DNA of 61,042 bases, the filler included, from Catajapyx aquilonaris (lineage: Eukaryota), in assembly GCA_000934665.2 (NCBI GenBank). It is 2 parts of 2 records of this genome, joined end to end, with 100 filler letters (N's around TTAATTAATTAA, not from the genome) between each part and the next. Parts side by side here need not be neighbours in the genome. Positions count along the whole stretch, not along the records: positions 1 to 30,449 come from JYFJ02004643.1; 1 more part is not named here. The stretch is one strand, 5' to 3'. Both the position numbers and the translations under genes were made by a program. How positions within the stretch are numbered: the first letter of the stretch is position 1; the number at the start of each line of letters is the position of its first letter. The notes beneath the pieces are model-generated. The model saw nothing but the letters and a program-made list of their open reading frames with translations. It was not told where the DNA came from and did not search any database. Of this stretch, positions 8,379 to 39,900 are shown piece after piece.

Positions 8379-8414
8379 AGGTTACGATGAAACCTGGCCA
8401 GGACTGTAGTCACG

Positions 8415-10451
8415 ATGGAGTCATATTCGTTGCCAGTCCTCATACTGCTCTTGTTGATGGTGGTGGCTGTGGATGGGGAGGTGACCCTTGACCTTCGATC
8501 ATCAGAGCACAGGGAGTTGTTTCGGGTGACTGAGTTTGTCCATTTGGTCAGCCGGATGTACCCTTCTTGCCTTTTGGTGCCTGCCACGGACCAAGGAAGA
8601 AGGTTCAACGGGCCTGAACTATCCGGGTTCATCAGGAGGATACACCGGGTGGGGGTGACCCCAGTGTTGCCCGTCACCACCACCACCGTGACCCGGCAGA
8701 AGAGGGGGTCACACCAGGTCAACTCAGGTCAGTTCGAGTACTGGTTCTCTTGGTTGCACAGACCTGGTGCGGTGGAGCACAAGTGCGCGGTGTACCTGCT
8801 CTTGCTCTTCGGGTCACCATCATCATCCGACCACCACCATGACCCGAGGTCACTGGTGGAGCAGGTGGCCAGACTGGTCTCCATCCAGACGGGAAGGGAC
8901 AAGTTCGTGGTGTGGGTCAGCGAGGGGGGACGGAGGGGGCTGGAGGAGGTCATGCTGCACGGGGTCACGGAGAGGTTCCTCTTCCTGGCGGGGGTGGACA
9001 CCTCCTCAGGGGTCCAGGGAGGTCATCCAGGGATGGTCGGGCTGCTCTCCAACTGCCACTTTTGCAAGGGGGGTCATCCCGGGGTGGTCACGAGGGGATG
9101 GTTCGACCCTGAAAAGGAAGAAGTGATTCCATCCGGACTGGATCTCTTCCCGGACTACTCCCGGAATATGCACAATCGATTCCTCAACGGATCATTCATG
9201 GTGGACCTGAGCAAGAACGAGCTGCAGTACTTCCGGGAAAACAACTTGCCCATGTTCCCAGAGATAATGGCCCCCCTTCCTATAAGCGAGGCACTCAATT
9301 TCGACTGGGTCTTGGAATCCCCCGAGGGGGAAGACGGGGTGATACCAGATGTGCCTCTGCCAGACGGAAACTACACCGGAGCAACAGGAGTCATCCTCCG
9401 AAGAAAAGCAGTGTTTGGAATAGCATTGATTAAAGATCGCATTTCCCTGGTGGTCGACGTCAATTTTCCCCATGGATTTGGCATAGTTTCCTTCGTAACC
9501 AGGGCCCCTCGAGTGAGCTACACCTGGAACGCGATGCTCCGACCGTACACTCCGGACATGTGGGCGATGGTGATGGTCTCCATAGTCTTTGGCAGCGCAG
9601 TCCTCGCCCTCCTCTTGAAGTGGAGTCCCCTCCCCCCCTTCCCATCAGGTGACCTCAGGAGGTCATCCCCCCGCCTCCTTCTGTACTCCCTGAGGTACCT
9701 CTCCTCCACCCTGATCGAAGAGAACCCGAACCTGGTCCCCTCCACCCAACCACCCCGAATATTCATCTCCTTCTGGTGGGCCTTCTCCCTGGTCATCATC
9801 TGTGGGTACGAGGCCCTCTACTTCGGCTTCCTGGCCTCTCCCTTGATGGAGGACCTCCCGGAGACATTCAGGGACAGCAAGAACTGGCCCAAGTGGACTT
9901 GGGGTACGATTGGATTCTTTAAACCGTTCTTCTACGGTGCTCTTGCCGGACTGGAATACTTTTCATCTGCTGCCAGGGAAATGACGGATCACGTGGACCT
10001 CAACACGTGTGTCCTCGAGGCCATGAACTCCGACCACTGCTGCATTGTCACTTACGACATCCTGGTGGCCGGTTGCTATCAGTTTGCGGACAAGGCGGGT
10101 AATCTGCCCACAAAATTTGCACAGGAAAGAGACATAACTGTGACCGGAACAATCCTGACCGAGAAGCACAGCTTGATATCCCCGATCATGAGCCGGATGC
10201 TCAAGTACGTCAGAGAGACCGGTGTACACAACAAGTTACAGAGGACCTTCGAGTATGCCTGCCTGACTATGGGAATAAGAGATGCCCGGAAGAATGACCT
10301 ATTGTACCAAAGGTCGATGGCCCTCAACTTTAGCCAGCTGAGCGGTGCTCTTTATTTCCTCTTTGTTTTTTCTTGGGGCATGAGTCTCGTGGGCTTCTTT
10401 GCCGAAGTTTTGACAGGAGGTGTGTTGAGCCAGTGTTGGCGTGGTTTTTAG
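8415..10451 (+). CDS. Divergent ionotropic receptor (variant iGluR chemoreceptor), single exon, 678 aa
   Basis: Signal peptide LPVLILLLLMVVAVDG. S1-like DGNYTGATGVILRRKA. First TM preceded by LRPYTPDMW. M3-like PRIFISFWWAFSLVIICGYEALYFGFLASP (SYTANLAAFL position). S2-like region ending RETGVHNKL. Final TM ALNFSQLSGALYFLF...FFAEV. GC-rich coding bias and no introns. Confidence 0.88.
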   Translation: MESYSLPVLILLLLMVVAVDGEVTLDLRSSEHRELFRVTEFVHLVSRMYPSCLLVPATDQGRRFNGPELSGFIRRIHRVGVTPVLPVTTTTVTRQKRGSHQVNSGQFEYWFSWLHRPGAVEHKCAVYLLLLFGSPSSSDHHHDPRSLVEQVARLVSIQTGRDKFVVWVSEGGRRGLEEVMLHGVTERFLFLAGVDTSSGVQGGHPGMVGLLSNCHFCKGGHPGVVTRGWFDPEKEEVIPSGLDLFPDYSRNMHNRFLNGSFMVDLSKNELQYFRENNLPMFPEIMAPLPISEALNFDWVLESPEGEDGVIPDVPLPDGNYTGATGVILRRKAVFGIALIKDRISLVVDVNFPHGFGIVSFVTRAPRVSYTWNAMLRPYTPDMWAMVMVSIVFGSAVLALLLKWSPLPPFPSGDLRRSSPRLLLYSLRYLSSTLIEENPNLVPSTQPPRIFISFWWAFSLVIICGYEALYFGFLASPLMEDLPETFRDSKNWPKWTWGTIGFFKPFFYGALAGLEYFSSAAREMTDHVDLNTCVLEAMNSDHCCIVTYDILVAGCYQFADKAGNLPTKFAQERDITVTGTILTEKHSLISPIMSRMLKYVRETGVHNKLQRTFEYACLTMGIRDARKNDLLYQRSMALNFSQLSGALYFLFVFSWGMSLVGFFAEVLTGGVLSQCWRGF

Positions 10452-11682
10452 CTCATCAGTCCAATATCAACTCATCCTGTTACATTTATGATTTATCACC
10501 TTGCAATACATTGAATTGTGCACCCTGTATACTTGAGTGAATAGGACAGTGAGGATAAAAAACAGTTTCTGTAGATAAGGGTAGGTGGCGTAATTTAATT
10601 AAAATTGAATGATTATCTCTGTGGTAATCGTCTTTGTTAAGCATATTTCAGTTTTAAAAATTATTATCAAGCATGTGAATAATATTGTTTGAATGGTCCT
10701 CTATTGTGCTCTCTGAGACTCTGGTGTACTCATGAACTGTTTTAAGTATGATTAAATGCATTATGCTATTAGAGAATGGTGAATATCATTTTCTCTAATA
10801 ATTGCATTTAAAAATTTCCACAGAATTCACCCAAGACACATTATGACCCTTCTGGGCTGGCTTCGGTCCCATCTGTACGAGGACATTCGCCCTAATTAAG
10901 TATGCGGTTCACACCTCTCTGCCAAGCGTGCTTCTCAATTATAGAGATTTACATGTGATTATGTAATGCATGATTACACGCTCGCGCCCCAGACTCGAGT
11001 CGATTACCTATAGCTTCACAATAGGACTTATTCCATCCTGGAAGTTGGGCCTCCCGAAGGACAGTACTTCAGTGTGGGTGGCCACGAAGAGCAAGGATGG
11101 AGCCCTCTTTTGGAAAATAGACTCTCTTATGAATGATCGAAATGGCTGTATGTGTGGAGGATGAGAAAGTCATGTCCCATTGCAAAGGTCAGACCTACCA
11201 TTCGCATAAATCAAACAGTTCTGTCATGTAGTGACCTGTTGTCTTTAAAAAATTTCTGCATTAATATTATGTTAGCCTATGTGGAATAGGTGATAATGTG
11301 GCTACGAATAACAGGGGTTTACTGCTAGCGTGTAATAGACTAAACGTCATCCACTTTTGCCCTGAGAAGTGACCTAAGTAGGTGACCTTTAAACAGACGA
11401 TTCGTGCCTTGACATGTTGTGGTCAGCAACGAATCTAATCTCTTCAGACCATATTATACACGCATAGGAATCCGAAACTGTTTAGATTCGGGCAAAACAG
11501 CGTCAGTCTAAGTTGATATCCAGGATACAATCATAGTCCTCTCTGCTTTATTCGGAAATGAAGCTCGATTCGGTTGCTTTCTGGTGTGTCCTGCTTCTGA
11601 CATTGGAAGGAAGGCGAGGACAGAGCCGCACCTTAGAGGAATGGCGGGCTAACCCACAAATTGTCATTTTCGAGTTATCGTA

Positions 11683-12430
11683 TCTAACCAAAAACGGACT
11701 CGTAAAAAAAACGCTAAGTCCTTAGCCACTCCGCCTAAAAAAGTTGTGAGATCATGGGTGGACACCAAGCCTCTTTGTGAGACTATAGATTAAGTCAAGT
11801 TACTTGGCTCACGATTGGAGACTATAGACTTACAACTCGTAGACTTGGCGCATGGTTCGAGACTCTATAGACTAAGGTGAGCGACTTGGCTCACGGGGAA
11901 TTATACCGGTACAAGGTGTTTCACAACTCGTGTCCAAAACTTTGAGGTTGAACTCGTGTGCACCAAGTGGATCACTTTACATAGAGCAGGTGAAGCGATT
12001 CACTGGTGCTCAGGAGTTCACCCTAGAAGTTTTGGACGCGAGTTGAGAAACACCCCGTATGGTTTGAAGGGGGAACTTGTTACTACATGAGTATACGGTA
12101 ATTATTAAGGAATTGCGGTCTGGATATTACAGCAGTAAATGGAAGGCACGTAACAGTCATTGGTTGATCAGAAACTACTAAATTTTATCATTAAGCTGCC
12201 TATTGCTCTTCATGCCCGGTGAACCAATTGGCTCAACCTTAGTCTATAGTCTCGAACCATGCGCCAAGTCTACGAGTTGTAAGTCTATAGTCTCCAATCG
12301 TGAGCCAAGTAACTTGACTTAATCTATAGTCTCACAAAGAGGCTTGGTGTCCACCCATGATCTCACAACTTTTTTAGGCGGAGTGGCTAAGGACTTGGCG
12401 GTTTTTTTACGAGTCCGTTTTTGGTTAGAT
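11683..12430. mobile_element. Young non-autonomous element with ~200-bp near-perfect inverted arms
   Basis: 11683-11882 is the almost exact reverse complement of 12231-12430. Each arm carries internal gagactatagac-type subrepeats. Confidence 0.8.
11910..12059. mobile_element. Nested ~150-bp palindromic MITE (TA-flanked, mariner-like)
   Basis: tacaaggtgtttcacaactcgtgtccaaaactt ... aagttttggacgcgagttgagaaacaccccgta. Confidence 0.7.
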
Positions 12431-12525
12431 AAAACATACGACAATACAAAAGCAATTAGAAAAAAGTCCCTAACTACCATCAAACCTATCACCAGATATG
12501 CGTCTGGACACTTATGGATCACCCT

Positions 12526-13545
12526 ACTGGGAGGCACTTGATTATCACAAACAGCTATGAGCAATCACCAGTAATAAAATTATAATGACTGGCACAACTG
12601 GGCATGTGATTCAACTTAATTCCATTCAACTATTCTCTGAAAGAGTTACTACTGTGAGCGTCACTGTTGTACTGCAGATTTGGACAGTGCATGGGGTACC
12701 ATCATGACTTTTTCTCTCTTCCACATTTATCAAAACCTACAATCCCAATTTCAATTTGCCATATCAGAAAATGCCATATCAGAAAATGAAATACCTAATA
12801 ACTTCAAGCAAGAATTTTCTTCCAGGCAATACCCTACTCGACACTACTATACACTTGCCCAATGGCAGTCAAGTTGACTGGTGTATATGTACCACCCCTG
12901 AGAAATGTCCCGGCAGGTAAAAAAAAGTTGCATTGGAAACTTTAAAAAATCTGACATAAATTAATCAGATTAAGACAAAATCTACATTGACGTCATATTG
13001 AACGAAGCTCGTCAGCTTTCGTCACACACAAACCATGTGGGTGCATAGCTTCTTGGCTACATCACTTCTGGACGTATTTGAACCATGTCTAACCTGCTGG
13101 TCCAATCGTACTATTGGAATTTTTATTTATTGGTCAATATTATTGTTGTGATACATTTTAATTCGGAGCTGACATTACTCCAACCTATGAATGGTGCCAA
13201 CAAATTCGAAACTGAGTTGAACCCATGAAAATAAGTACCTAAGTTCCAAGGCCAATACTCAATCCATATACTACCGTATAATTATCAAAGGCGCCAAATG
13301 GGGAAAAATCCGTATAGTGGTGGCCATTTACAGTAAATAATGGAACTTCCCATTAGCCAGTCATAAAGCCAGTATTAAATATTGCTATATCTCAAAAGTA
13401 AGTTTTTGACACTTAGGCCCTTTCTAATATTATTTCCACCCTTCAGATATCTTGTTAATTTTTGTACATTCATCCTTCCTCTCCATATCCGTGTGTAGAC
13501 CACATATGGATAACTTTACCCGTTATAAAAATATTTACATACATT
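12526..13545 (+). repeat. Second copy of the duplication: blocks A and B fused, lacking the 1762-5845 interval
   Basis: Junction aaatctgacata|aatta|atcagattaagacaa joins the end of block A to the start of block B. Confidence 0.85.
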
Positions 13546-13793
13546 CACATACCTGACCAGATATTCAAGGCAATGTTGTTGACGGGTTGGTAAGACTGAT
13601 TCACGTACCTTAGTAACGGGTTCAAGTGTGGAAAAGTTTCCTCTGCCAAAATTTTCCGCCTCTGACCGCTGCTGGCTCACCCAAGGGTAAGTGTAAAGTT
13701 CGAATATGTTTTTTGTGGAGTGCAGTGCTCTTATAGCAGTAGACACTTGACATTGCAGGTGCCCTTCATACTCTTATGGTCACATTCAGCAAT

Positions 13794-14324
13794 ATGGCTC
13801 ATCAACCCAGAAGGTGCCAGTGTTCTGACAACCCATCGTCCTCTTCCCAGATGTGAGTATGTTGCTTTAGTTTAGGTTGCGTAAAATAACCAGCACTCAA
13901 AGTACAGTAACTGCATAAAGTAAATGCTAATAATTGACAACAATGCCTGTCAGCAAGCAAGGTTAACAGTGCAAAAAATTTCTCTTTCCGAAGGGACCCC
14001 ATGTGCACCTGCACCATGGGGATCCCTCCCTTGGTCCCATTGTTCAAGGGCCAGCCCTTGAACGTCGACCCAGCAGAAGCAGCCAAGTGCCTGAGGGACA
14101 TCTCCGTGGGCTCTGAGAAAAACGGGATCCCTCCTTCAGGGATGGGCGACGTCAGCACACCGCCTGCCACCAGCCGCCGATTGGACTACCGCAACTCCTT
14201 CTGCGACCTCCTCCAGCCAGAGGTCTCCAACCTGCCCAGGATGAAGGGCATGACTCGAGAGGACGTCGAGAATATGTTCAGAGACCACGCCGCTGCCCGA
14301 GACAGGCACACCTCGCGCCAATAA
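13794..14324 (+). CDS. Two-exon 129-aa small protein, paralogous to exon 9 of the neighbouring FSIP2-like gene
   Basis: Exon 1 13794-13852 (MAHQPRRCQCSDNPSSSSQ; donor AT|gtgagt). Exon 2 13994-14324 (acceptor ttctctttccgaag|G; MDPMCTCTMGIPPLVPLFKGQPLNVDP...RNSFCDLLQPEVSNLPRMKGM...DHAAARDRHTSRQ*). The phases match. The stop TAA is embedded in AATAAA. Confidence 0.75.
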
Positions 14325-14441
14325 AAACAGACCAAAGGGTGTGTTTCGCCAACTGATGGGTATATATATTTAGTTTGATTCGTGCATGGGTTTCTTCTTC
14401 TTCTTCTTGTTCTTCTTCCCCTCCTACATAAAATGTCGTGG

Positions 14442-17400
14442 TCATTGTTCGCCGTTTTCGTTGCTGCTGGCTTTGGTCAGGACACTGGCTTTCGAGGACG
14501 AAGAGGATCCGATGTCGGACACGAACGACTTGATTCTGTCCAGCAGATCGGACAGCGACTTGCTCAGGCTACGACGAGCCGCCGTGGATGAGTCGACCGA
14601 CCTCGGGGAATCCGTCGAGTGGGTGCCCGATGAGTCTCCGTCCGCCTGCTTCTCCGGAGCACCCACCAATTTCTCACCGGATAGGTCACCGGGAAGGCTG
14701 AGGGCTGCCTCAGATTCGGCGTGGGTGAAACGAGCTGTCGCCCACGATCCGCTTTCGGTCACAGGCGCCGAAGACGTCCTGGGGTTCTCCTCGTCCAGTA
14801 TGCCAGAAGCAGGCTTTGCCAATGAAACGGCTGCCAGAGCCGCGTTTTCGGATGGCGTCGGAGTCACTTCGATGCTGGTGGTCGGGGTTGCAGCGGACAT
14901 GGACGAAGCGAAGCAGCGGTCCTGCACGTTGTCGTCGATGTAAGGCCCGCTGATGCTTCGTCTGGTGTCGAACGCGTTGAAGGATTGACGTGGTGAGCGG
15001 TAGGCAGTGCCGAACAGTTGTGACGACGATAGGTCCTGAGAGGATCAAAGAAGGTGTCAACAACTAATCCAAACGACTACGACGACGACTACTACTATAC
15101 AAACACCTGGAATTTCAAATCGACGATACTTACAGCCGACTGGCGCTGTTCTCCTCCAGACGCGATAGACACGGTGGACGTATACCTGGAATCGCCCAGA
15201 GTGGCTTCCTCCACTTCCTGGTCAGTCTCGTCCCCGACCAGGGTGAGAACCTCGTCCTGGATGGCCACCACCGCGTCCATGTCGTCCACCGACGACATCC
15301 TCCTGTCCAGGTCCTCCTTTGACTTCTCCTTCAGACCCAAACCGGATGACAACTCGTTCCTGAACCACAGCGGTCCGTAGTCCTCCTTCTCGTCCTCTTT
15401 CAGGACACCCTCGCTCGGACGCTTGCTGACCCTTGCGGACGCGATCTGGCTGTGTTCGTCGTACCTAACAGTTCATGGAAAATATGTAAAAAAGACCGCA
15501 CACAAATTTAAACAGTTGTCAATTGATACCCTTGCTCTCCGCCTTGATTGGCTTCATTCAATGCATCGTGCACCATCTGCACCACCTCGTCCTCCACAGG
15601 CGACTCGGACTCGTTCAGATCGACAGTGCTCTGTTCCCTCTCTTCCCTGGAGTCCCTGGCGTCCAGTGGAGCCTGCCAGTCCTCGTCCCTGCTGGCGTGG
15701 TCCAATAGCACCTGCTGGATGGCCTCCGGGGAGAGTCCCTTCATCTGCTCCAGGTGCGACACCTCCGGCTTCAGAAGGTTGGCGAACGAGTTTCGGTCCA
15801 CCAGCTCGTGCGGAGGTACGCAGGTCTGGCTCGGGTGGTCGGCCAGGGGCATCGGAATGCTTCCGCTGGGCTCCAGCTGGCCTCCAGGGGTTCCTCCTGA
15901 GCTCCCTGCGATGCCTTCCTTGCTCAGATGCTGGATGGAGATGGCCCTCAGACCGCGGGACACCACGTCCGGGTCGATCTCCAGGGGCTTGCCGTTGTAG
16001 TGCGGAATCAGGTCCGGGGCTGGCAGCGGGCAGTAGCACTGGTTGCCGCATGGGCCTGTCCCGTCGTATGCACCACCGCAGTAGCACAGGTGGGGTCTGT
16101 GGTTTCAAGACAACGAGATTTAGACTCTGAAGGAAAAATATATACCACGGAGAAACATCCCATCTCCAAAGCTAGTAAGGGTGTTTCTCCTTGGGACGGC
16201 AGCGCAGTACTTACTGCACATCCTGCAGACGGTGCTCCTCTTGCTGGATGTCCCTCAGGAGGTAGTCGACCATGGTGGTGGCGACCACGTTCATGGCGCT
16301 TCCGGTCACGCTCCTGATCTGCCGCGAATCGGTCGTGCTCTCTCCGGATGAAGGCGCCATGTCTTGCGAGGGGCCTGGAGGAGCTGCGGTGGTCAGTCTC
16401 TGGGCAGCGGCCATCAGGGTCAGCCTGACCAGCTGCGCCGCCTCCATGGACAGGTTCTCTCCGAGGATGGCATCCGCGCTGCGAGACATCGATATGGTCG
16501 AGTCTACCTGAATTGCGTTAGCGGTGGCCATGGACACGGAGCGTTTGGGCTGTGCTGCTGCGCCCGGTATCTTCTCTCTGGACCCAGACTTTGTTGGAGG
16601 CTTCTTCTTTCCTGCCCCTTTGCCACCGGGAGGCGATTTCGAAGGAACTCCAGGTTCTTGTGACGAGGGTCCTGCCTCCTCCTCTTCTTCCACCACCTTC
16701 TTTGGCTGACTGCCCACACATGGTGCAGCAGGCTTCGATTTGGGTTTCCTAGCTGCCCTAGACGCCTTCACCGCTCCTTCGGCATCCTTCAGGGTAGCGA
16801 CCACCGTGCCCACCACGTTCTTGGCGTCCTCCTTCCCTCCATCCACAAGCTCCTTCAGCTTCTTAGCGGCCAAAGCACCCAGCTCCTCCTTGCACTCCAG
16901 ATAAGTCTTGGCGTTGGGGAACATGAGGTTTCTCTGAGCAGCGGCCAAGGACTTGGCCACTTTATCGGCGGTGTCTTTGAACCCAAACTTCTCTGGCGTG
17001 TCCGCAAGCTTCTCCTTGGCCACTTTGGACAGCTCCGGCGGCATTGAGGGATTGTCCAGAAACTTCTGCAGCTCGTCCCGAGCGTGGTCCCTGAAGTGAG
17101 CCTCGGTGATCATCCCCGCCGCTACCAGGATTATCTCTCTGGGATCCGACGCCTTCCTGGCCGTCTTCAGCGCAGCAGCCACGCTGTTGACCAGCGTGTC
17201 GTCCAGATAGGCAGGATGCGTTTCTTTCAGGCCTTCAGATTGCAGATCAAGGAACACTTTCACAGCTGCGTCGGCGGGAGCCTCCTCCTCCTCCTTCAGC
17301 GCTTCCGCCACCGCCTCCGACATGACCTCGTTGTCGGCCATGTCAACCTGGATATCCTTCAGCAGGAAGTCAGTCTGCAGGTGCAGGATCTCATCCAGCA

Positions 17401-20400
17401 TCAGTTCCGCCAGGGCCTGGATCGAGTTGAGATCGACTGGTGGAGCAGGTCGCGGTTGGGCTATTCCGCTCATGGCCACCATGACTGCTGCGGCGTTCCG
17501 GCCGTCTTGCCTCTGCAGCATCCTCTCTGCTCCGCACAGCACGCTCCTGGCGTGCGCTCTCAGCACGCTCTCCACCAGCCCTGGAGCCACCGCCTGGAGG
17601 CCCTCTGGCACCTTGGGGGCGCTCTTGGTCACCGAGTCAATGGCCTTGGCCAGCGAGTCGCATATCTTCTGCCTGTCCAGGTTCATCAGCTCGTCGGTGG
17701 TTCCAGGCGAGGATGCAGCCATCAGCAGCGACTGCATCTGCATCCTGGCCGCTTCCACCAGCAGGAGGGCTGCCACCACGGCCAGGTTCTTCGGGCAAAC
17801 GCTCGTCCCCAGTCCGCTGTCCAGGAGCACCTGCAGGATCTCCTTCCTGGCCAGGCTCTGTCGGGCGTTCCGGATCAGGCTGTCGCGGTAGGACTCCAGG
17901 ACAGAGTCCAGGAGAGATTGGGCCGCTTCTTGCGAACGTTCCGTGTCCACCCCTTCCTCCGTCATGTGTTCCAGAAGCTTCTTAACCAGCGCTGTTCTGT
18001 CGATTTGGTCTCGAGTGTCGACAGACACCCTGGCCCCCTGAGCCCTCACCAGTCCCGGCGCCACCCTGGACGTCGCCTCCGGAGCAATGTGGTTCATCTC
18101 TTCGGCCACCGCCTTCCGCAATGCCGCGTCCGACCCGCTGACAAACGCCTCTCCCATTATTTCCTCCTCTTTTTGAGCGAGCAGCTTCTCAATGTCCAAG
18201 TCCGAGAGAGTGAACACCACCGACTCCTGGGTCAGCCTCCTGGCCTGTATGTCCAGGATGCGGTCCACCAGGTCAGATGCCACCGGGGAGACGCCCTCGC
18301 TGCCAATGCGCTCCGGAGCCTCGTTCATCAGCTTGTCCATCTCCTCGTCCTCGTGCTCTGCCAGAAGCTTGCACGTCTGGGCGTGGAGGGCGTCCAGGAC
18401 CAGCTCATCTGCGGTCAGCGACAGAGTGCCTGTGGCTGTCAGGTCGTACGGAAGGTTCAGGGGCAGTTGGCCGTCCGACCTCACTTGGCGAGTCGGCACC
18501 CCTTTTGGTTTCAAACCTGTCACGGACTTCTGTTTCAGCGGGACCGCTGGAGCCCCATCAATCTTTGCAGTTGGATCCACCTTGACCTTCTTGGCAGGGG
18601 TCTCGGGCTCGTCATCCTGCTTCTGCCACCTGAGGTCGTCCAGGAACTGTACCAGGGTTCCGGCGATGTTCGCCTGCAGCAGCTTGTTCTTGGAAGTGTC
18701 CGAGAGAGGAAGGGTCATGTCCAGATCGGCCTTTTTCAGAACTCGCTCGATCATGGCCAGAGCCAAGGCGACAATGTCCACTGGAGGATCCTTCATGGGA
18801 ACATTTCCGTGCTCCCCGGTCTTGCACAGCTCGTGGAGTTCCTGAAAATCATGTGTAGGATCAGCCAGGGACGGATTTGCCGACAGGCATTTTTTTTAAA
18901 TGCATGGGCCTGTGATTTTAGCAGCAATGATAGAAATTGCAATTATGACAAGAGCCTGATCTAATTCTATGTGAGCAAGGCTTGTCTGATACGTCAAAAA
19001 AAGCTAATTTTCTAAATGCCTATAAGGGGCATCCGTCACTGGACTCAGCCTAACGAAAAGAAACCACGAGGAATAAAACAGCGTGCGTTCCTGTTTCATC
19101 ACGTTACTCAAATTTTTTTATTGAACTTTTTTTGTCCCACCCGGGCTGCCATCAGTTTTTCAGATTACTTATTTTTTTTTTGCCAAAATATGACTCACGT
19201 CTGCAATTTTTTTTAAATAAAGCTCGCAGGAAAGCTGGCGGTTTTATCCCTCGAGTCTCAAATAGAGAAACCCTCCCCGCGCAATTCTACAGCCCTTGCT
19301 CTCTGTCAGTTAGTTAATCAACCCTGGCTCTTGGCCGACTGGATGGACCCTGAGCGTTTTGGGGAGCCCCGATCCTCCTGGTTGTCCGGAGACTGCTCCC
19401 CATCGGGAGAAGCCTGATGGACGTCCACGGTGCTGCTGGTCTCACAGACACACAGGGAGCTCTTCTTCCCTAAACGAACCTGCAGCTCCTCCCTGAGGCT
19501 CTCCATCACGTGGTCCACCAGAGCCCTGGCCGCCCAGTCCACTATCTCTGCTCGTCTCTTGGCCGACTGCTTCTCTGCCGGAGTCATAGGAGCCCCCTTG
19601 GCCTTGCCTGCTGCTGTCTTGCCCCCTACTGTGCTGCATGGCGCCAGGCACGGTTCTTCTTCTTCTCCTTCTCCTCCTTCTGCCTCTCCTTCTGCCCCTC
19701 CTTCTTTGCCCTTCTTTGCCGCCGCCGCCTTTCCTTGTGCTGCTTCACCAGACCCCGCGCTCTCCCGCCTCTCTGCATCCTCCCCAACAGACAGATCCTC
19801 CTCGGAGCTGCTGGTCTTCGACCCCACCTTCTTCTTGGACTTCTTGCCCTTCTTCTTCCTCTTGCTGGAAGTGCGCGAGAGTTCGGAGGGCCCTTCGGTC
19901 GCGCCAGCTTCGGAGGTCCGTCTCGAAGAGCTTTCTTCCTCTTCCTCATCCTCATCCTCCTCCTCTTCGGACTTCTTCTTCTTCTTCTTCTTCTTCCTTT
20001 TGCCCACACTCTCGGTGGACGAGGACGGTAGCACGGCTTTTTTGGGCTTGTGGCGCGACTCCACTCCGTGGATAGCCTCCCTGACCACCATCTCGGATAT
20101 CTGGGACACGATGCTTTCGATGCCCGCAGGAGCTGGAAGGACAAAAAAAAGAGCAAGAGTTATTATATTATGGCTTACTGTGCTTCCCAGAAAAGAAAAT
20201 ATGGCAGCGCATCTCTTGCATTTTATAAACTCTTGAAAATACCCCTGAAAAGTCTGTCCAGAAACTGTACAAGTTTGCATGAAAAGGACCTAACCACGGT
20301 TAAGTTGCTTACTTGTTGCTTAGTATAATTATTGCGCAAAAATCTATGCCGCTCAGAATTTTCCTCATGAAATCATGTGTTGCGAAAATCAGTGCTTGAA

Positions 20401-23091
20401 AGCTCCTTTTGCCATTTTCCACTGTGACTAATCACAAATCATGGCAAAATGGGGGGGGGGGAAGCCAAGTCATGCATTTTTCAAAATGTACAGTTTCACA
20501 TTAATAATTTGCCAAATAATTATTTTCTAGGGATGCAACAAGTGAGATCAAAAACGACCAAGTTCACTGGGGGGGGGGGGGNTTATGGAGTTATTTTAAT
20601 ATCATTGTGGGTATTAATTGCACATTTGAGTATGCATCGGAACTCCGGCTACATACAGACGTAAAAAGTTTCAAGATTGCACCAGTGAAACTAAAGTAAT
20701 CATCAGTTTTTGCTCATTTTACGATCAGTTTTTCCAAGTAGATTATTATTTTGGTCGTTTTTGATCTCGGACCCCTCAATAATTAAGAAGTTGAATATTG
20801 TTTTCATCCCACACAGTGAAGGCACGGGAGGGAGGAGGCCTGTAATGTATCCGGAAGACTAAACGACGATCTGACGTCATCGTAACGCCTGAGAACAAAA
20901 TGATGGCGTCAGATCGTCGTTTCGTTTTCCGCGCTGTATAGTTGATTCAGCTTACATATTTCTCTCCTGGACCCTGTTTCCAGCTCCCTCTTGCTCTCCT
21001 TGATGAGCTTGTTGGAGAGAATCGTGGACACTTCTCCCAGGAATTCTCCCATCAATCGGGCCATCTGCGGATGCTTGGGGTCTTTGGCTCTGGAGAGGCA
21101 ACGGGAACGGGAACACGGTGAGCAAACCCCGGCTTCAAGATGAAGTACGAAATAATAAGTCAGAAATAACTCACTCCTCAATTTCGAAGACGATGTCTCC
21201 GCAGACGCAGGTCCTTCCGGAGGTGTCCCCATCCTCAGTGAGGCACACCGAGTGTGCGGCGCAGAGCTTCTCCTTGAGCAGCAGGGTGCTCCTCTCCCTG
21301 ATAATGCCCATGACGCTCTTGGCCAGCTCGAGGGCCTTGGCGGTCACCAGCTCGTCCCTTGCCTGTTCCGCTATCTCGCCGACCACTCCCTCGACTGCCT
21401 GGTAGACGTTCGGGTTCAAAGCTATCAGCCTGAGCACCTCCTCTCGGACCCTCCTTCGACTGGCAGCCTCCGCAGACAGGTCGCTCTCCCGACGCCTCCG
21501 ACGGCTCTCCTCCTCCGCCTTCTCCATGGCCTCCTGCTGGAGTTTGTCCTGCATGAACCTTCGCTTCAGCATCTTCAGCGTCTGACGGAGGCTGTCGTTT
21601 ATGTCCCAGGCCGTCTCGAACTTGGCCTCCTGCTTGATCTTGGTCTGCTGCTTCTTCGACAGGTCTGGAGTTTCCTCCACTTGGACCGGGCGCCCTGTCG
21701 ACCAGTGGGCTGCGGGAAAGAAAGAAGAGACGCTGTAAATTACCCAGGCCAAGGCTGTAGGACCCCAGGCTTATATCTCTCACCCTTGTCTCTCTTCCTG
21801 GTCTCGGCCAGGAACTTCTCGTACTCGTCGATGTTGGCCCTGCGCTGGTTCTCCCTGTTCTCCGTGATGGTCTTGGCGTGGTCCATGGAGTCCTCCTGCA
21901 TCTTCCTCTTGGCTTCCAGATATAACCCCCTGGCCTCCTCCCGCTCGTAATCCAGATCCATCCTGCGCATCTCCAGCCTGTTCTGGACCATCTCTGCCTT
22001 CTTCCGGATAGTCGCGGCAGTGGCGTTCCTCCATCGGCACCTCTCCTGGGCGGCCAGCCTCAAGGTCTCCTGCTTCATGGCCCTCTCCTGCTCCCTCAGG
22101 GAGTTCACCTGTAGCTTCTCCATCAGGGCCTCCTGCGCCTTCCGCTCTCTGATGCGCTCCTCTTCCATACGAGCCTCGTTGGCCCTGCAAGGACAATCAT
22201 CTCATCCTCAACGACACCGTCAATTATTACAACCTTTCTTGTAACACACACTGTACCTTTGTATGACTCGGAGTTGCTTTCGTTGGTATCTGATCTTGGA
22301 CTGGTGGGCCTTATCTGCCCTCATGCGAGCCCGGTCCGCTCCTGCAGCATCCCTCTCGGCAGCTCGAATCATCTCCAGCTGTTTCTTTTCGCATCTCTCG
22401 CGTTCGTCCTGACAAATTCAGCAAGATTACCAGTCGATTATTTATTATCACGTGGTTGTTCGGACTTACCCTGAGGTTCCTCTCGTGCAGGATGGCGTCC
22501 CTGTAGTTCTTGTTGAGATAAGCCCTGAAGTCGTTGAATTGCTTCAGGGAACAGATGACATGCCCGTCCTCCGTCACGACCTCGTTCTTCATCAGGATCT
22601 CCTTGACCAGGGGCACTTTGAAGTAGCTCTTCAGGTGGCGGTCGTGCAAGGGCTCGTAGATCGTAGGGAGCTTCGTCTTGTACATGTACGGATCGGACAG
22701 GTCGAAATCATGCAGCGGTGAGATGAACATGAGCTGACGAAAAGAAAACAGTATAGTTTTAAAACTGGCAATCCTGAACAATGAGGATCAAATCATCGGT
22801 TTCTCTCTATATAATGTGATTAGCAGCAATTACCGGTTTTGCGAGCTTCTCCCTGGCGTAGACGACAGCCCCTCTTGGAACAGGGACCCTGGGCAGCTTG
22901 GCGTCCATGGCCCTCTCCTTCCATTCCGGAAGGACGTTTGGCCCCGGAGGGACCCTGGCCTTGTGCTTCGGGATACATCCGTACAGTACCTCGGACGGTG
23001 GCAAGGGCCTGACGTTCAGCCTGGTGTACACGTTGTCTTCCCGGACTGATGATGAACTGGCGAGGTCTTCGCTCATGTCTGCGCCGTCCAT
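14442..23091 (-). CDS. Fibrous sheath-interacting protein 2-like (FSIP2-like), 11 exons, ~2171 aa
   Basis: Exons (minus strand): 23091-22834, 22733-22470, 22408-22257, 22184-21784, 21709-21175, 21089-20956, 20132-19480, 18841-16215, 16096-15530, 15464-15134, 15035-14442. All introns are GT-AG with consistent phases; the total of 6516 nt is divisible by 3. Exon 2 (FDLSDPY...YEPLHDRHLKSYF...VVTEDGHVICSLKQFNDFRAYL) matches the FSIP2 N-terminal motif, followed by coiled coil, a Lys/Glu low-complexity tract and helical repeats. Confidence 0.8.
20544..20768. mobile_element. Intronic MITE-like element
   Basis: gagatcaaaaacgaccaa / ttggtcgtttttgatctc inverted termini inside FSIP2-like intron 6. Confidence 0.55.
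20861..20922. repeat. Short hairpin in intron 6
   Basis: aaacgacgatctgacgtcatc / gatggcgtcagatcgtcgttt, a ~21-bp stem about 35 nt from the exon 6 donor. Confidence 0.7.
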
Positions 23092-30449: not shown

Positions 30450-30549
30450 NNNNNNNNNNNNNNNNNNNNNNNNNNNNNNNNNNNNNNNNNNNNTTAATTA
30501 ATTAANNNNNNNNNNNNNNNNNNNNNNNNNNNNNNNNNNNNNNNNNNNN
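30450..30549. other. Artificial scaffold linker (N44-TTAATTAATTAA-N44)
   Basis: Exactly 100 positions. The central 12-mer encodes stop codons in all six frames. Confidence 0.92.
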
Positions 30550-36900: not shown

Positions 36901-39900
36901 GCGATTACCCCTGGGTACTTGAGCAACTTCTGTCTGTAACCAGTTGGGCGGAAGTAGTCAAGTTGAAGCAAACTGCACTTTTGTACATCTGATCTGGCCT
37001 ATACTCCGGATTTGGTCGTCTGCCTGGACTAACCTTACCTGTTGGAGAAGACTTTGTAAAGGCGTCTCCCGGACTCGGTTGTAAGCCGCGGCTAAAATGC
37101 AACCTGGTTTTTATCAAAGGGATTTTAAAGGCGGTCGGACCAGTTTTATTAAATCGTACGGGCAGGGCTACAGTGCAGTCACGAAGTGTTGGCGGCCCTA
37201 ATTGGTTGAGGTAGCCAGACTCTACAGTGTGCTTAACCACTATTAAACAGTAAACATAGCCATCCTTGAGCATGATGGCACCACAGGGTAAGTCTGAGCT
37301 AGAGCTGTACTGTAGCGGCCAGCTTTTTGCGTTATGATATCATTGGTGAATTGGATGTGACATCAGTAATGGCTGAGTTTTTTTTTTTGGGGGGGGGGGG
37401 AGGCCTATGAGGGTTGTCAATATAGGAATGCAGCCGGGTTGCCAACATAATGAAGTTTTTTTTTTTTTTTTTTTGCCATTCTCGTAATAAGTTTGAAGCT
37501 ATTTGAGGAAGCTCAGGGGCCTGTGTAATAACGAAGTTTGTAGCTATAGCCTGTCCCAGTTTTGAGCAAAATAGAAGTCGCAACCTCACTGACATGTACT
37601 TTGATTAAAAGAGAGCTAGCTAATTCAGTATAAGGTTTGTTATTACCGTTGCTATATTAGTGCTTCTAATAATAGTCTAGTTTGGCATAACCGGAGTCGA
37701 CTATAATTTTCGTGCCACGTGTATATGAATTGAACGTTATGAAGCTCCCCTGATTTTCTATGGATGCTTATGCATTACAGTGCCAGAATAGACATTAGCT
37801 GATGATACGGTTGGCCGGATACAGACCGGCATTGACGAATAGAAGTGCCCCAGTTACAACATGCCTTGAGGTCGGGTATACTTTACACCTCAAATTTAAG
37901 CTGATGTAACGCAACACCTTGGCGCGATTTCAAATAGCTCCCCCGTCTCTCTACCCCTACGCAATCGACCACTTCCGAGGAGATAGGGCCCTGTGGTGGA
38001 ATGTGAACGGTAGAAGCTATTCTCCCATTCTGGGAAACTGGCAAGGGAATCTCGACCTCTTTTTTTTCTCCCCCCCCCCCNNNNNNNNNNNNNNNNNNNN
38101 NNNNNNNNNNNNNNNNNNNNNNNNNNNNNNNNNNNNNNNNNNNNNNNNNNNNNNNNNNNNNNNNNNNNNNNNNNNNNNNNNNNNNNNNNNNNNNNNNNNN
38201 NNNNNNNNNNNNNNTTTTTTTTTTTTTTCCTGAAATGGGGATTCTGTCCAGTGTATATTATAGTGGAGGTGCCGAGCCTCGTTTCTTACATCGATTTTCT
38301 TCTGGGTTCTGTCACATTATACATACATTCGTCTGATGAGATGGTATGACTACAGGGCTCTTCACTGGAATCTCTAATAAAGGAGTCAATATTAGAGAGG
38401 AGACTGCGGGTGGGGGAGTTCAAAACACTGTTAGTAGGCTTGAAATATTTGGCTAGGGTCGTAATAATGTTGGTGTTATCAACACAGCACATTGGTATTG
38501 ACTAACCCCCCAGTAGGCTGGTACAGCACATTTCCACCCAGCTGGACACCAGCAGGCATGTACCAACCAGAGCGTTGCCAAGTAGTGCCAGCAGGGAAAC
38601 TGGCACGGCCATGCGTGACTATTGGGAGCCCTGATGCATTTTAGACCTATCTCTCGTAATGTTACGGACAAGTTCTTTTACATGCCTCCAGGGCTCTTTG
38701 TGACCCCAAGTCCTATAGAGATAGGAGTTTCCTATCACTTTGAAATGGATATTGGGAGGTGGCACCCTCCACTTTGTATAACGATATGTGACGACGCCTA
38801 CCGATTGGCTGCCCTGTTTTTCACATGTGGGATGATCAACCCCGCTCTTTTTTTTAAAAAAAAAATCCGAATGGGGAGGATGTTGAGTACCATTGGCACA
38901 CGGATATTGTGAAGGGGACTCTAGAGTTCAATTACACTACCTGAATTCGACATACAAATGTCGTGGGTATGCGTTAATTAATTAGATGGTCACTTACGCA
39001 CGAGTACTACCCGCTTCAAAAAAAAACAACAACTAGCTGAATGATATTTCACGCCGCACATGGTGGGTTACATAATGAGATGGAAAGTAAATGGGACCTT
39101 TTTATTTAGAAATAGAGCGCGCGGCATGAAGGTAGCTTTTTATGGGTTCAGATTAGGCCTATTTTTACCCCGATTGTTCCCCAAGCTATATTTGAAAGCC
39201 CCCGAAGAAAATGTCGGTGGGTAGCTTAATCAGATCTGGTTAATGCGGATGATTCCTAGAGGTAGGAGTGATGGGGGTTTTCGGGCATTAAGCAGCACAT
39301 CTGGGCTGAATAACACGCATGTGCACTTAGGTGCAGTGTGTACTCGCAAGCCACGTTAATGAATTAATAATAACCGGATGGTTGATGCAGCAGTGGGGGG
39401 GGGGAGGGGGCGGATGAGTAGTTTTCATCTAACTTGGCTCAGTACAATATCATGCAACTNNNNNNNNNNNNNNNNNNTTTTTTTTTCGATGGGGGGGGGG
39501 GGTGTTGCCTTGTTATTAACCTCTGAAGGTTAGATCAGTTAAATGTTAATGCTCTAGTTTTCCCCGCTTCCTTTGTTGATTATGCCTGGGTGTCGCACTT
39601 GTCGCCCATTTTCCTAGTTGGGGGGAGGGAGGGGGGAGGGGGGGGGGTAGATTTGCAATTCGAAGCGATGCCGATGCAAACCAAATTTTGTGACTAAGGC
39701 ATTATTATTAGATTCTGGGCGTGACGTTTAATCAAGTCAGGTGTGCACCGTCGATCTTCAGATAATTTTATTACGAGACGTTGCATATAGGGTCATACCC
39801 GCATCTAAAAAATTTTTGCGCGCGTCCCAATTTTCTTCAGGCCTCCTCTTTATATTAGGCAATCTGCTTCTCGTGCCCGGTTGTAAACCCAGCCAAGAGT

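Follow-up and report, generated by a model that had tools for sequence, protein, structure and literature searches.

FSIP2 is a giant scaffold protein of the sperm flagellum. In humans, its loss leads to a disorganised fibrous sheath and to impaired flagellum formation, and FSIP2 is described as phylogenetically widespread, AKAP3 and AKAP4 as arising only with the fibrous sheath, and the way in which FSIP2 contacts its partners as unclear (PMC11276731); AKAP4 is bound by FSIP2 at two sites (Fang et al. 2021, cited in PMC11276731). A second described system to which the locus reported here can be compared is that of the trans-type microProteins, such as LITTLE ZIPPER and miP1a/b, which are smaller than 20 kDa, contain a single domain and derive from a domain of a larger protein; in most of the cases described, they act on transcription factors or photoreceptors by means of dimerisation domains (PMC9638782, PMC4807768). 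The event type that yields a domain-only paralogue, partial gene duplication, is already known. Here we analyse a stretch of 61,042 nucleotides, filler included (two joined records; hereafter the window), from the genome of Catajapyx aquilonaris (GCA_000934665.2), in which a small two-exon frame on the plus strand, the mini-gene, lies tail to tail with a large FSIP2-like gene on the minus strand and resembles one exon of it, the big exon at 15530-16096. We consider it likely that the mini-gene is a real coding paralogue that originated when this module-bearing exon of the FSIP2-like gene was duplicated locally, long ago and in inverted orientation, and that gained its start codon, intron and poly(A) signal later.

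A first-pass annotation of the window had aligned the 129-amino acid (aa) product of the mini-gene by eye with the minus-strand exon 16096-15530 and had described protein similarity that was clear and DNA similarity that was not obvious. Both descriptions were borne out. BLASTP of mini-gene exon 2 against the big exon returned 63.2 bits, with 41 of 117 positions identical (35%; E 2e-18, calculated for the single comparison), and, when the spliced 129-aa product was compared with the whole window by tblastn, the segment 16101-15691 was found besides the mini-gene itself (residues 3-120, 32.8% identity over 137 columns, E 3.1e-17), the next match having an E value of 0.19. No inverted DNA repeat was found that joins the two copies, the region 13000-17000 yielding only five short unrelated pairs. 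The spacing of the cysteines, CxC-13 residues-CxC, is identical in the mini-gene and the big exon, and the exon-1 motif QPRRCQC and its counterpart QPHLCYC each lie 13 residues ahead of the second CxC. When the window is translated in six frames, RNSF occurs twice, in both cases at the module copies, and P..C.C occurs five times, two of which are the module copies; because P..C.C is so rare, the short match in exon 1 is unlikely to be due to chance. The strings and coordinates on which the first-pass annotation relied are all present in the sequence. Its QPHLCYC match is also present, with the reservation that the Q is encoded by a codon that the upstream intron interrupts (CA at 16216-16215). 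Similarly, its term "Cys-rich domain" fits the cysteine cluster seen in both copies but not the family as a whole, because the cluster is limited to these two and the family-wide conserved core is not Cys-rich. The possibility that the similarity arose by chance, or that the locus is an assembly artefact caused by an inverted mis-joining of haplotypes, has the proximity of the two copies in its favour and nothing else. The E value argues against chance, and, because the DNA has diverged to saturation at synonymous sites (see below) and no inverted repeat is present, the pair is not a recent or artefactual duplicate. We regard this explanation as refuted and its probability as close to nil.

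We next turn to the identity of the shared module. The big exon scores above the threshold of the Pfam family PF15783 (FSIP2; 27.5 bits compared with a cut-off of 27, E 1e-6, profile positions 705-735), and 28 of the 34 aligned family members, scanned singly, match PF15783 at E ≤ 1. In the relatives and the big exon, and not in the mini-gene alone, both halves of the module are colinear with the C-terminal third of PF15783, segment 1 at positions of about 611-658 and segment 2 at about 702-770. Because the segments of the relatives map to these positions, the module is, as judged from the profile, the C-terminal part of PF15783 (about 611-770 of 875), and the CxC...CxC/RNSF domain that had not been recognised in the first-pass annotation can be named. 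The mini-gene itself is tied to the FSIP2 family solely via the big exon and the family alignment. Like the C-terminal region of PF15783, it carries ..P.[LV][IV]P...G..L.I[DN] followed by a helix ending L.A[IL]S[IV] (segment 1) and, colinear with it, RNSF....P[ED][LV] followed by a helix (segment 2). In contrast to that region, it has the CxC-13-CxC lead, which is otherwise found only in the neighbouring big exon. At the other end of the FSIP2-like gene, the region 22938-22491 matches the N-terminus of P0077 (E 1.5e-12), a long insect relative that itself has no Pfam family. The presence of this N-terminal region together with the C-terminal module in the large gene would fit an FSIP2-like layout, and vertebrate FSIP2 has the same arrangement, with the module near its C-terminus. 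The mini-gene differs from human FSIP2 in that it consists of the module alone and so corresponds to about 2% of the human protein, for which a length of 6907 residues is stated (PMC11276731).

In the maximum likelihood tree, the mini-gene and the big exon are sisters (99/98) against all insect sequences, and the two have common states that are missing from the insect sequences. Over the 70 columns on which the tree is built, the terminal branch of the mini-gene is 2.68, the longest in the tree, and that of the big exon is about 0; the mini-gene is the most divergent member, and its long branch indicates that this copy evolved fast. Because the two copies are sisters and nearly all of the divergence lies on the mini-gene branch, duplication from the exon to the mini-gene is the favoured direction, and, because the FSIP2 family model already includes the module, a local duplication of the module exon in inverted orientation would be the likelier history. 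The first-pass annotation had offered two directions; the first of these, in which the exon became a small gene, is favoured over the second, in which a small gene was recruited into the FSIP2-like protein. In that second history, the free-standing module gene would be ancestral and a copy of it would have been taken up as an exon by the FSIP2-like gene. Small module proteins do exist in insects, and the big exon begins exactly at the start of the module, both of which speak for recruitment. However, the module is already part of PF15783, which implies that the fused state is old; the divergence is carried by the mini-gene and not by the big exon; and P0077 (884 aa) unites an N-terminal region and part of the module in one product. 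We therefore consider recruitment to be very improbable.

Long-term purifying selection on the mini-gene is supported by its coding sequence. We compared the mini-gene with the big exon over 126 aligned codons using our own pairwise GY94/F3x4 likelihood script. Synonymous sites were saturated, and nonsynonymous divergence (dN) was about 0.57. Along the profile of omega (the dN/dS ratio, where dS is synonymous divergence), twice the log-likelihood difference (2dlnL) was 3.4 at 0.05, 6.9 at 0.1, 27.8 at 0.5 and 48.8 at 1, and omega values of 0.5 and of 1 are both rejected. GC content at third codon positions (GC3) is 0.77-0.80 in the mini-gene frame and 0.63-0.79 in the other coding exons of the window, compared with a GC content of 0.36 in the mini-gene intron and 0.39-0.40 in the flanks, and the fine GC profile shows a rise that is confined to the proposed mini-gene exons. 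A dead copy at synonymous saturation should match the background GC, and the GC3 of the mini-gene thus counts for selection. The mini-gene further keeps 10 of 10 invariant columns of the 34-sequence alignment (P11, P15, G19, L22, L33, S37, R66, N67, S68 and P75 in exon-2 numbering); of 26 columns with a conservation of at least 90% among the 32 other sequences, it keeps 14, compared with 16 kept by the bona fide big exon. The first-pass annotation had read the locus as an old inverted duplication kept under selection, and the saturated dS with persisting protein similarity, the rejection of omega = 1, the GC3 and the invariant residues all agree with it; the pairwise alignment and dN/dS comparison that it had recommended gave the E value and the 2dlnL reported above.

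Several results weigh against the interpretation of the mini-gene as a working paralogue. The Nei-Gojobori counts (pS 0.58, pN 0.46) are not striking; these counts were set aside for the likelihood model because they are uninformative at saturation. The omega result itself comes from a single-omega pairwise model and from an alignment that was chosen by protein similarity. The long mini-gene branch could reflect relaxed constraint, and a recent loss of function may also be compatible with it. Mini-gene exon 2 has no match in Pfam at E ≤ 1 and does not reach the PF15783 cut-off (27 bits), and the exact open reading frames (ORFs) from 14001 and 14016 are absent from a collection of 15 billion proteins. 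Structural comparison of the predicted module gave no match in the PDB at E ≤ 0.001 by Foldseek, and the best of 48,161 chains by VIA-align had a Z of 4.8 (the NLRP14 pyrin domain), which is within the noise range of the tool. The splice junction 13852/13994 is predicted only, and we know of no binding partner of the module. The branch length, the lack of a Pfam match and the absence of the exon-2 ORF from the protein collection would also suit a relic, that is, a paralogue with a long functional past that has since fallen silent or recently died, its open frame and signals merely persisting. Such a relic, however, is hard to square with a 129-codon frame, ATG, GT-AG intron and AATAAA that are all intact, with a GC3 that still stands apart from the background of 0.36-0.40 GC despite the saturation of synonymous sites, and with the retention of every family-invariant residue. 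We judge it improbable.

As for the gene model, the mini-gene frame comprises 390 nucleotides (nt) when joined and encodes 129 aa and a stop (Table 1). The intact frame, its own ATG, the phase-2 intron that is missing from the big exon and the poly(A) signal that the first-pass annotation had listed can all be read in the sequence. The donor that follows 13852 is CAGAT/GTGAGT, which is strong and in phase 2, and the acceptor preceding 13994 is TTTCCGAAG/G. The predicted model thus has its own start and its own stop and specifies a short protein that is essentially all module. Because the upstream plus-strand ORF stops at 10451 and no coding-like plus-strand island is present between 10452 and 13580, the mini-gene is, on the model given here, an independent unit. 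It can be regarded as a well-supported prediction of a gene, the expression of which is predicted only. A somewhat different model of a real coding unit, with a start at 14001 or 13776, an untranslated 5' exon or more upstream exons, would be in keeping with the in-frame ATGs at 13776, 14001 and 14016 (the latter two in exon 2), with upstream GT-AG signals read by eye (donor GTAAGT at 13687 and acceptor TTGCAG ending at 13758) and with a modest rise in GC at 13580-13820. However, the equal 13-residue spacing of QPRRCQC and QPHLCYC, in a window with so few occurrences of P..C.C, speaks for exon 1 as modelled, and the lack of a coding-like island on the plus strand upstream speaks against further exons; we consider another model unlikely, albeit a little less so than a relic. 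The same upstream signals could also bound a 72-nt intron within the 5' leader (13687-13758, AAGG/GTAAGT ... TTGCAG/G), upstream of the mini-gene start.

Table 1. Features of the mini-gene and of the FSIP2-like gene in the window
Feature	Position	Strand	Remarks
Alternative upstream in-frame ATG	13776..13778	+	Adds MVTFSN (6 residues, giving 135 aa); weak context, C at -3
Mini-gene coding exon 1	13794..13852	+	Start ATG flanked by A (-3) and G (+4); length 19 codons and 2 nt; QPRRCQC
Mini-gene intron	13853..13993	+	141 nt, phase 2, GC 0.36, GTGAGT...CCGAAG; not present in the big exon
Mini-gene exon 2	13994..14324	+	Module core; stop TAA; GC3 0.80
AATAAA polyadenylation hexamer	14320..14325	+	Overlaps stop codon TAA at 14322-14324
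Variant poly(A) hexamers ACTAAA and AATATA	14365..14374	-	The only such signals 3' of the stop of the FSIP2-like gene
Last coding exon, FSIP2-like gene	14442..15035	-	Open frame; acceptor read from sequence (inferred); stop 14442-14444
Penultimate coding exon, FSIP2-like gene	15134..15464	-	Open frame; GT-AG borders and frame read from sequence (inferred)
Module exon (big exon), FSIP2-like gene	15530..16096	-	Scores 27.5 bits against Pfam FSIP2; the mini-gene is its copy or paralogue
Large upstream exon, FSIP2-like gene	16215..18895	-	Ends CA/GTAAGT; 5' border not fixed
N-terminal conserved region, FSIP2-like gene	22491..22938	-	tblastn against the N-terminus of P0077, E 1.5e-12

Structure prediction, which the first-pass annotation had also recommended for the common domain, gives one layout for both copies. 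For the mini-protein, AlphaFold2 with the family alignment predicted a moderately confident two-part core made up of a two-stranded mini-sheet, a helix at residues 26-39 and a terminal helix at 88-108, with a linker at 41-66 that is predicted to be disordered. Mean predicted local distance difference test (pLDDT) values in blocks of 10 residues were 85, 88 and 72 over residues 11-40 and 78, 88 and 89 over residues 71-100. The layout predicted for the module of the big exon is identical, and the two halves of the module are predicted to pack together. Confidence is low for the CxC-13-CxC lead, and a zinc site there is only a guess. A search of the PDB by sequence profile gave no matches at E ≤ 1.

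To place the module among known proteins, a profile of the two copies was compared with 1.84 billion representative sequences. Seven matches were obtained at E ≤ 0.001, of which three (P0004, P0005 and P0007; 122-199 aa) are true relatives; P0001, P0002, P0003 and P0006 were dropped as false, being repetitive proteins matched in many short stretches. A profile seeded with the three true relatives found 68 proteins. Nearly all of these are from Lepidoptera, about 200-310 aa long and entered as "uncharacterized protein LOC..."; psyllid proteins (199 aa) are also among them. Examples are LOC103523952 and LOC103522568 of Diaphorina citri (192-199 aa) and LOC proteins of Pieris, Danaus and Bombyx (about 280-300 aa). 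All 68 are unnamed and lack a precomputed Pfam domain. Because small module proteins already sit, unnamed, in insect annotations, the free-standing form of the module is, by profile similarity, not unique to this genome. As in the mini-gene, the module of these proteins lies within a short protein and has identical invariant residues. In contrast, their core identity to the mini-gene is 29-37%, the lepidopteran proteins carry a further conserved C-terminal tail, and none of the small insect proteins is known to lie tail to tail with a giant parent gene. A search for longer relatives spanned 350-2000 aa, a range beyond which giant FSIP2 proteins lie, and gave one match, P0077 of Epargyreus clarus, which unites an FSIP2-N-like region with the second module part and the conserved tail in one product and skips the first module segment. 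Because P0077 contains both an FSIP2-N-like region and part of the module, the lepidopteran proteins of ~290 aa (P0013, P0024 and P0069) may be internal-promoter isoforms or fission products of a reduced FSIP2-like gene and not duplicates. A word-index search with mini-gene exon 2 alone gave three candidates, none at E ≤ 0.01; the ESM Atlas returned a best feature score of 0.86, on unrelated clusters, and no structure entry; and metagenome scans with exon 2 and with alignment A1 found no relative. In the portions of the literature retrieved on FSIP2 domains, repeats and evolution, on AKAP4 and two-hybrid work, and on Drosophila and orthologs, we did not find a free-standing FSIP2 module described, and a literature search for "PF15783" found nothing.

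We propose that the module-bearing exon of the FSIP2-like gene would have been duplicated locally and inverted long ago, and that the mini-gene copy would subsequently have gained a start codon, a poly(A) signal and, in the spacer, one intron. The product, of 129 aa or, from the upstream ATG, 135 aa, would consist of the short CxC-13-CxC lead followed by the bipartite FSIP2 C-terminal module, that is, a mini beta-hairpin and helix, a disordered linker, and RNSF..P[ED][VL] with the terminal helix. Because the module is also found in small insect proteins, we infer that it may be an autonomous docking domain. A domain-only product would then take the binding site of the giant protein's own C-terminal module in the sperm flagellum, and the mini-protein would serve as a microProtein-like competitor or cap, or else as a separate adaptor. 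In its layout, the mini-gene product resembles the trans-type microProteins in being a small (under 20 kDa), single-domain relative of a larger multi-domain protein, the genetic arrangement by which this type is defined. It differs from those described in that the parent is a giant structural protein of sperm type. A broader and decidedly tentative proposal, which we think unlikely, is that the C-terminal FSIP2 module (~100 residues) is an ancient docking domain that folds autonomously into an unmatched fold, that has been freed more than once and that acts here as a microProtein-type regulator of a sperm-tail scaffold. Under this proposal, the module would have been released by duplication in this genome and, in Lepidoptera and psyllids, through gene fission or a short isoform, the mini-protein would compete for or cap a docking site of the scaffold while the sperm tail is assembled, and the convergent 3' ends would add a possible antisense coupling.

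The locus and the insect proteins together delimit a compact module of ~100 residues, the conservation of which extends from arthropods to the Pfam FSIP2 model. The module is predicted to fold by itself and appears to have been retained under selection as a stand-alone protein, and it would make the otherwise intractable FSIP2 more accessible to binding, structural and knock-out studies. If the proposed origin of the mini-gene is true, the locus would be an animal case of a domain-only paralogue that arose by duplication of a single exon of a structural, not a regulatory, protein.

The FSIP2-like gene has open frames on the minus strand from about 22938 down to its stop (Table 1). The stop codons of this gene and of the mini-gene are 117 nt apart (14325-14441, GC 0.40). 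No canonical poly(A) hexamer was found on the minus strand from 14445 to 13162, and, because only the variant hexamers lie beyond the stop of the FSIP2-like gene, the 3' ends of the two genes probably abut or overlap slightly. An overlap of the convergent 3' ends would permit antisense coupling. Within the N-terminal region of the FSIP2-like gene, 22491-22787 on the minus strand has a weak, sub-threshold match to the SPMAP1-like family PF15075 (E 0.009-0.026), which may reflect a motif common to sperm proteins.

In the window as a whole, exons are GC-rich and non-coding DNA has about 40% GC. Rfam gave no matches in the whole window. The window contains 250 N in nine runs (30450-30549, 38081-38214, 39460-39477 and single bases; assembly gaps or masked bases), none of which is near the mini-gene. 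Upstream of the mini-gene, the plus strand carries at 8391-10451 an intronless 686-aa frame with its stop at 10451, which scores 28.3 bits against the ligand-gated ion channel family PF00060 (cut-off 30.8) and resembles an arthropod ionotropic-receptor-type gene. The spacer between this gene and the mini-gene comprises 3.3 kb of AT-rich DNA and contains a foldback transposon resembling a miniature inverted-repeat transposable element (11681-12431). Its 187-nt terminal inverted arms (11681-11867 and 12245-12431, with 377 nt between them) are 98% complementary, and the element is probably a young, non-autonomous transposon.

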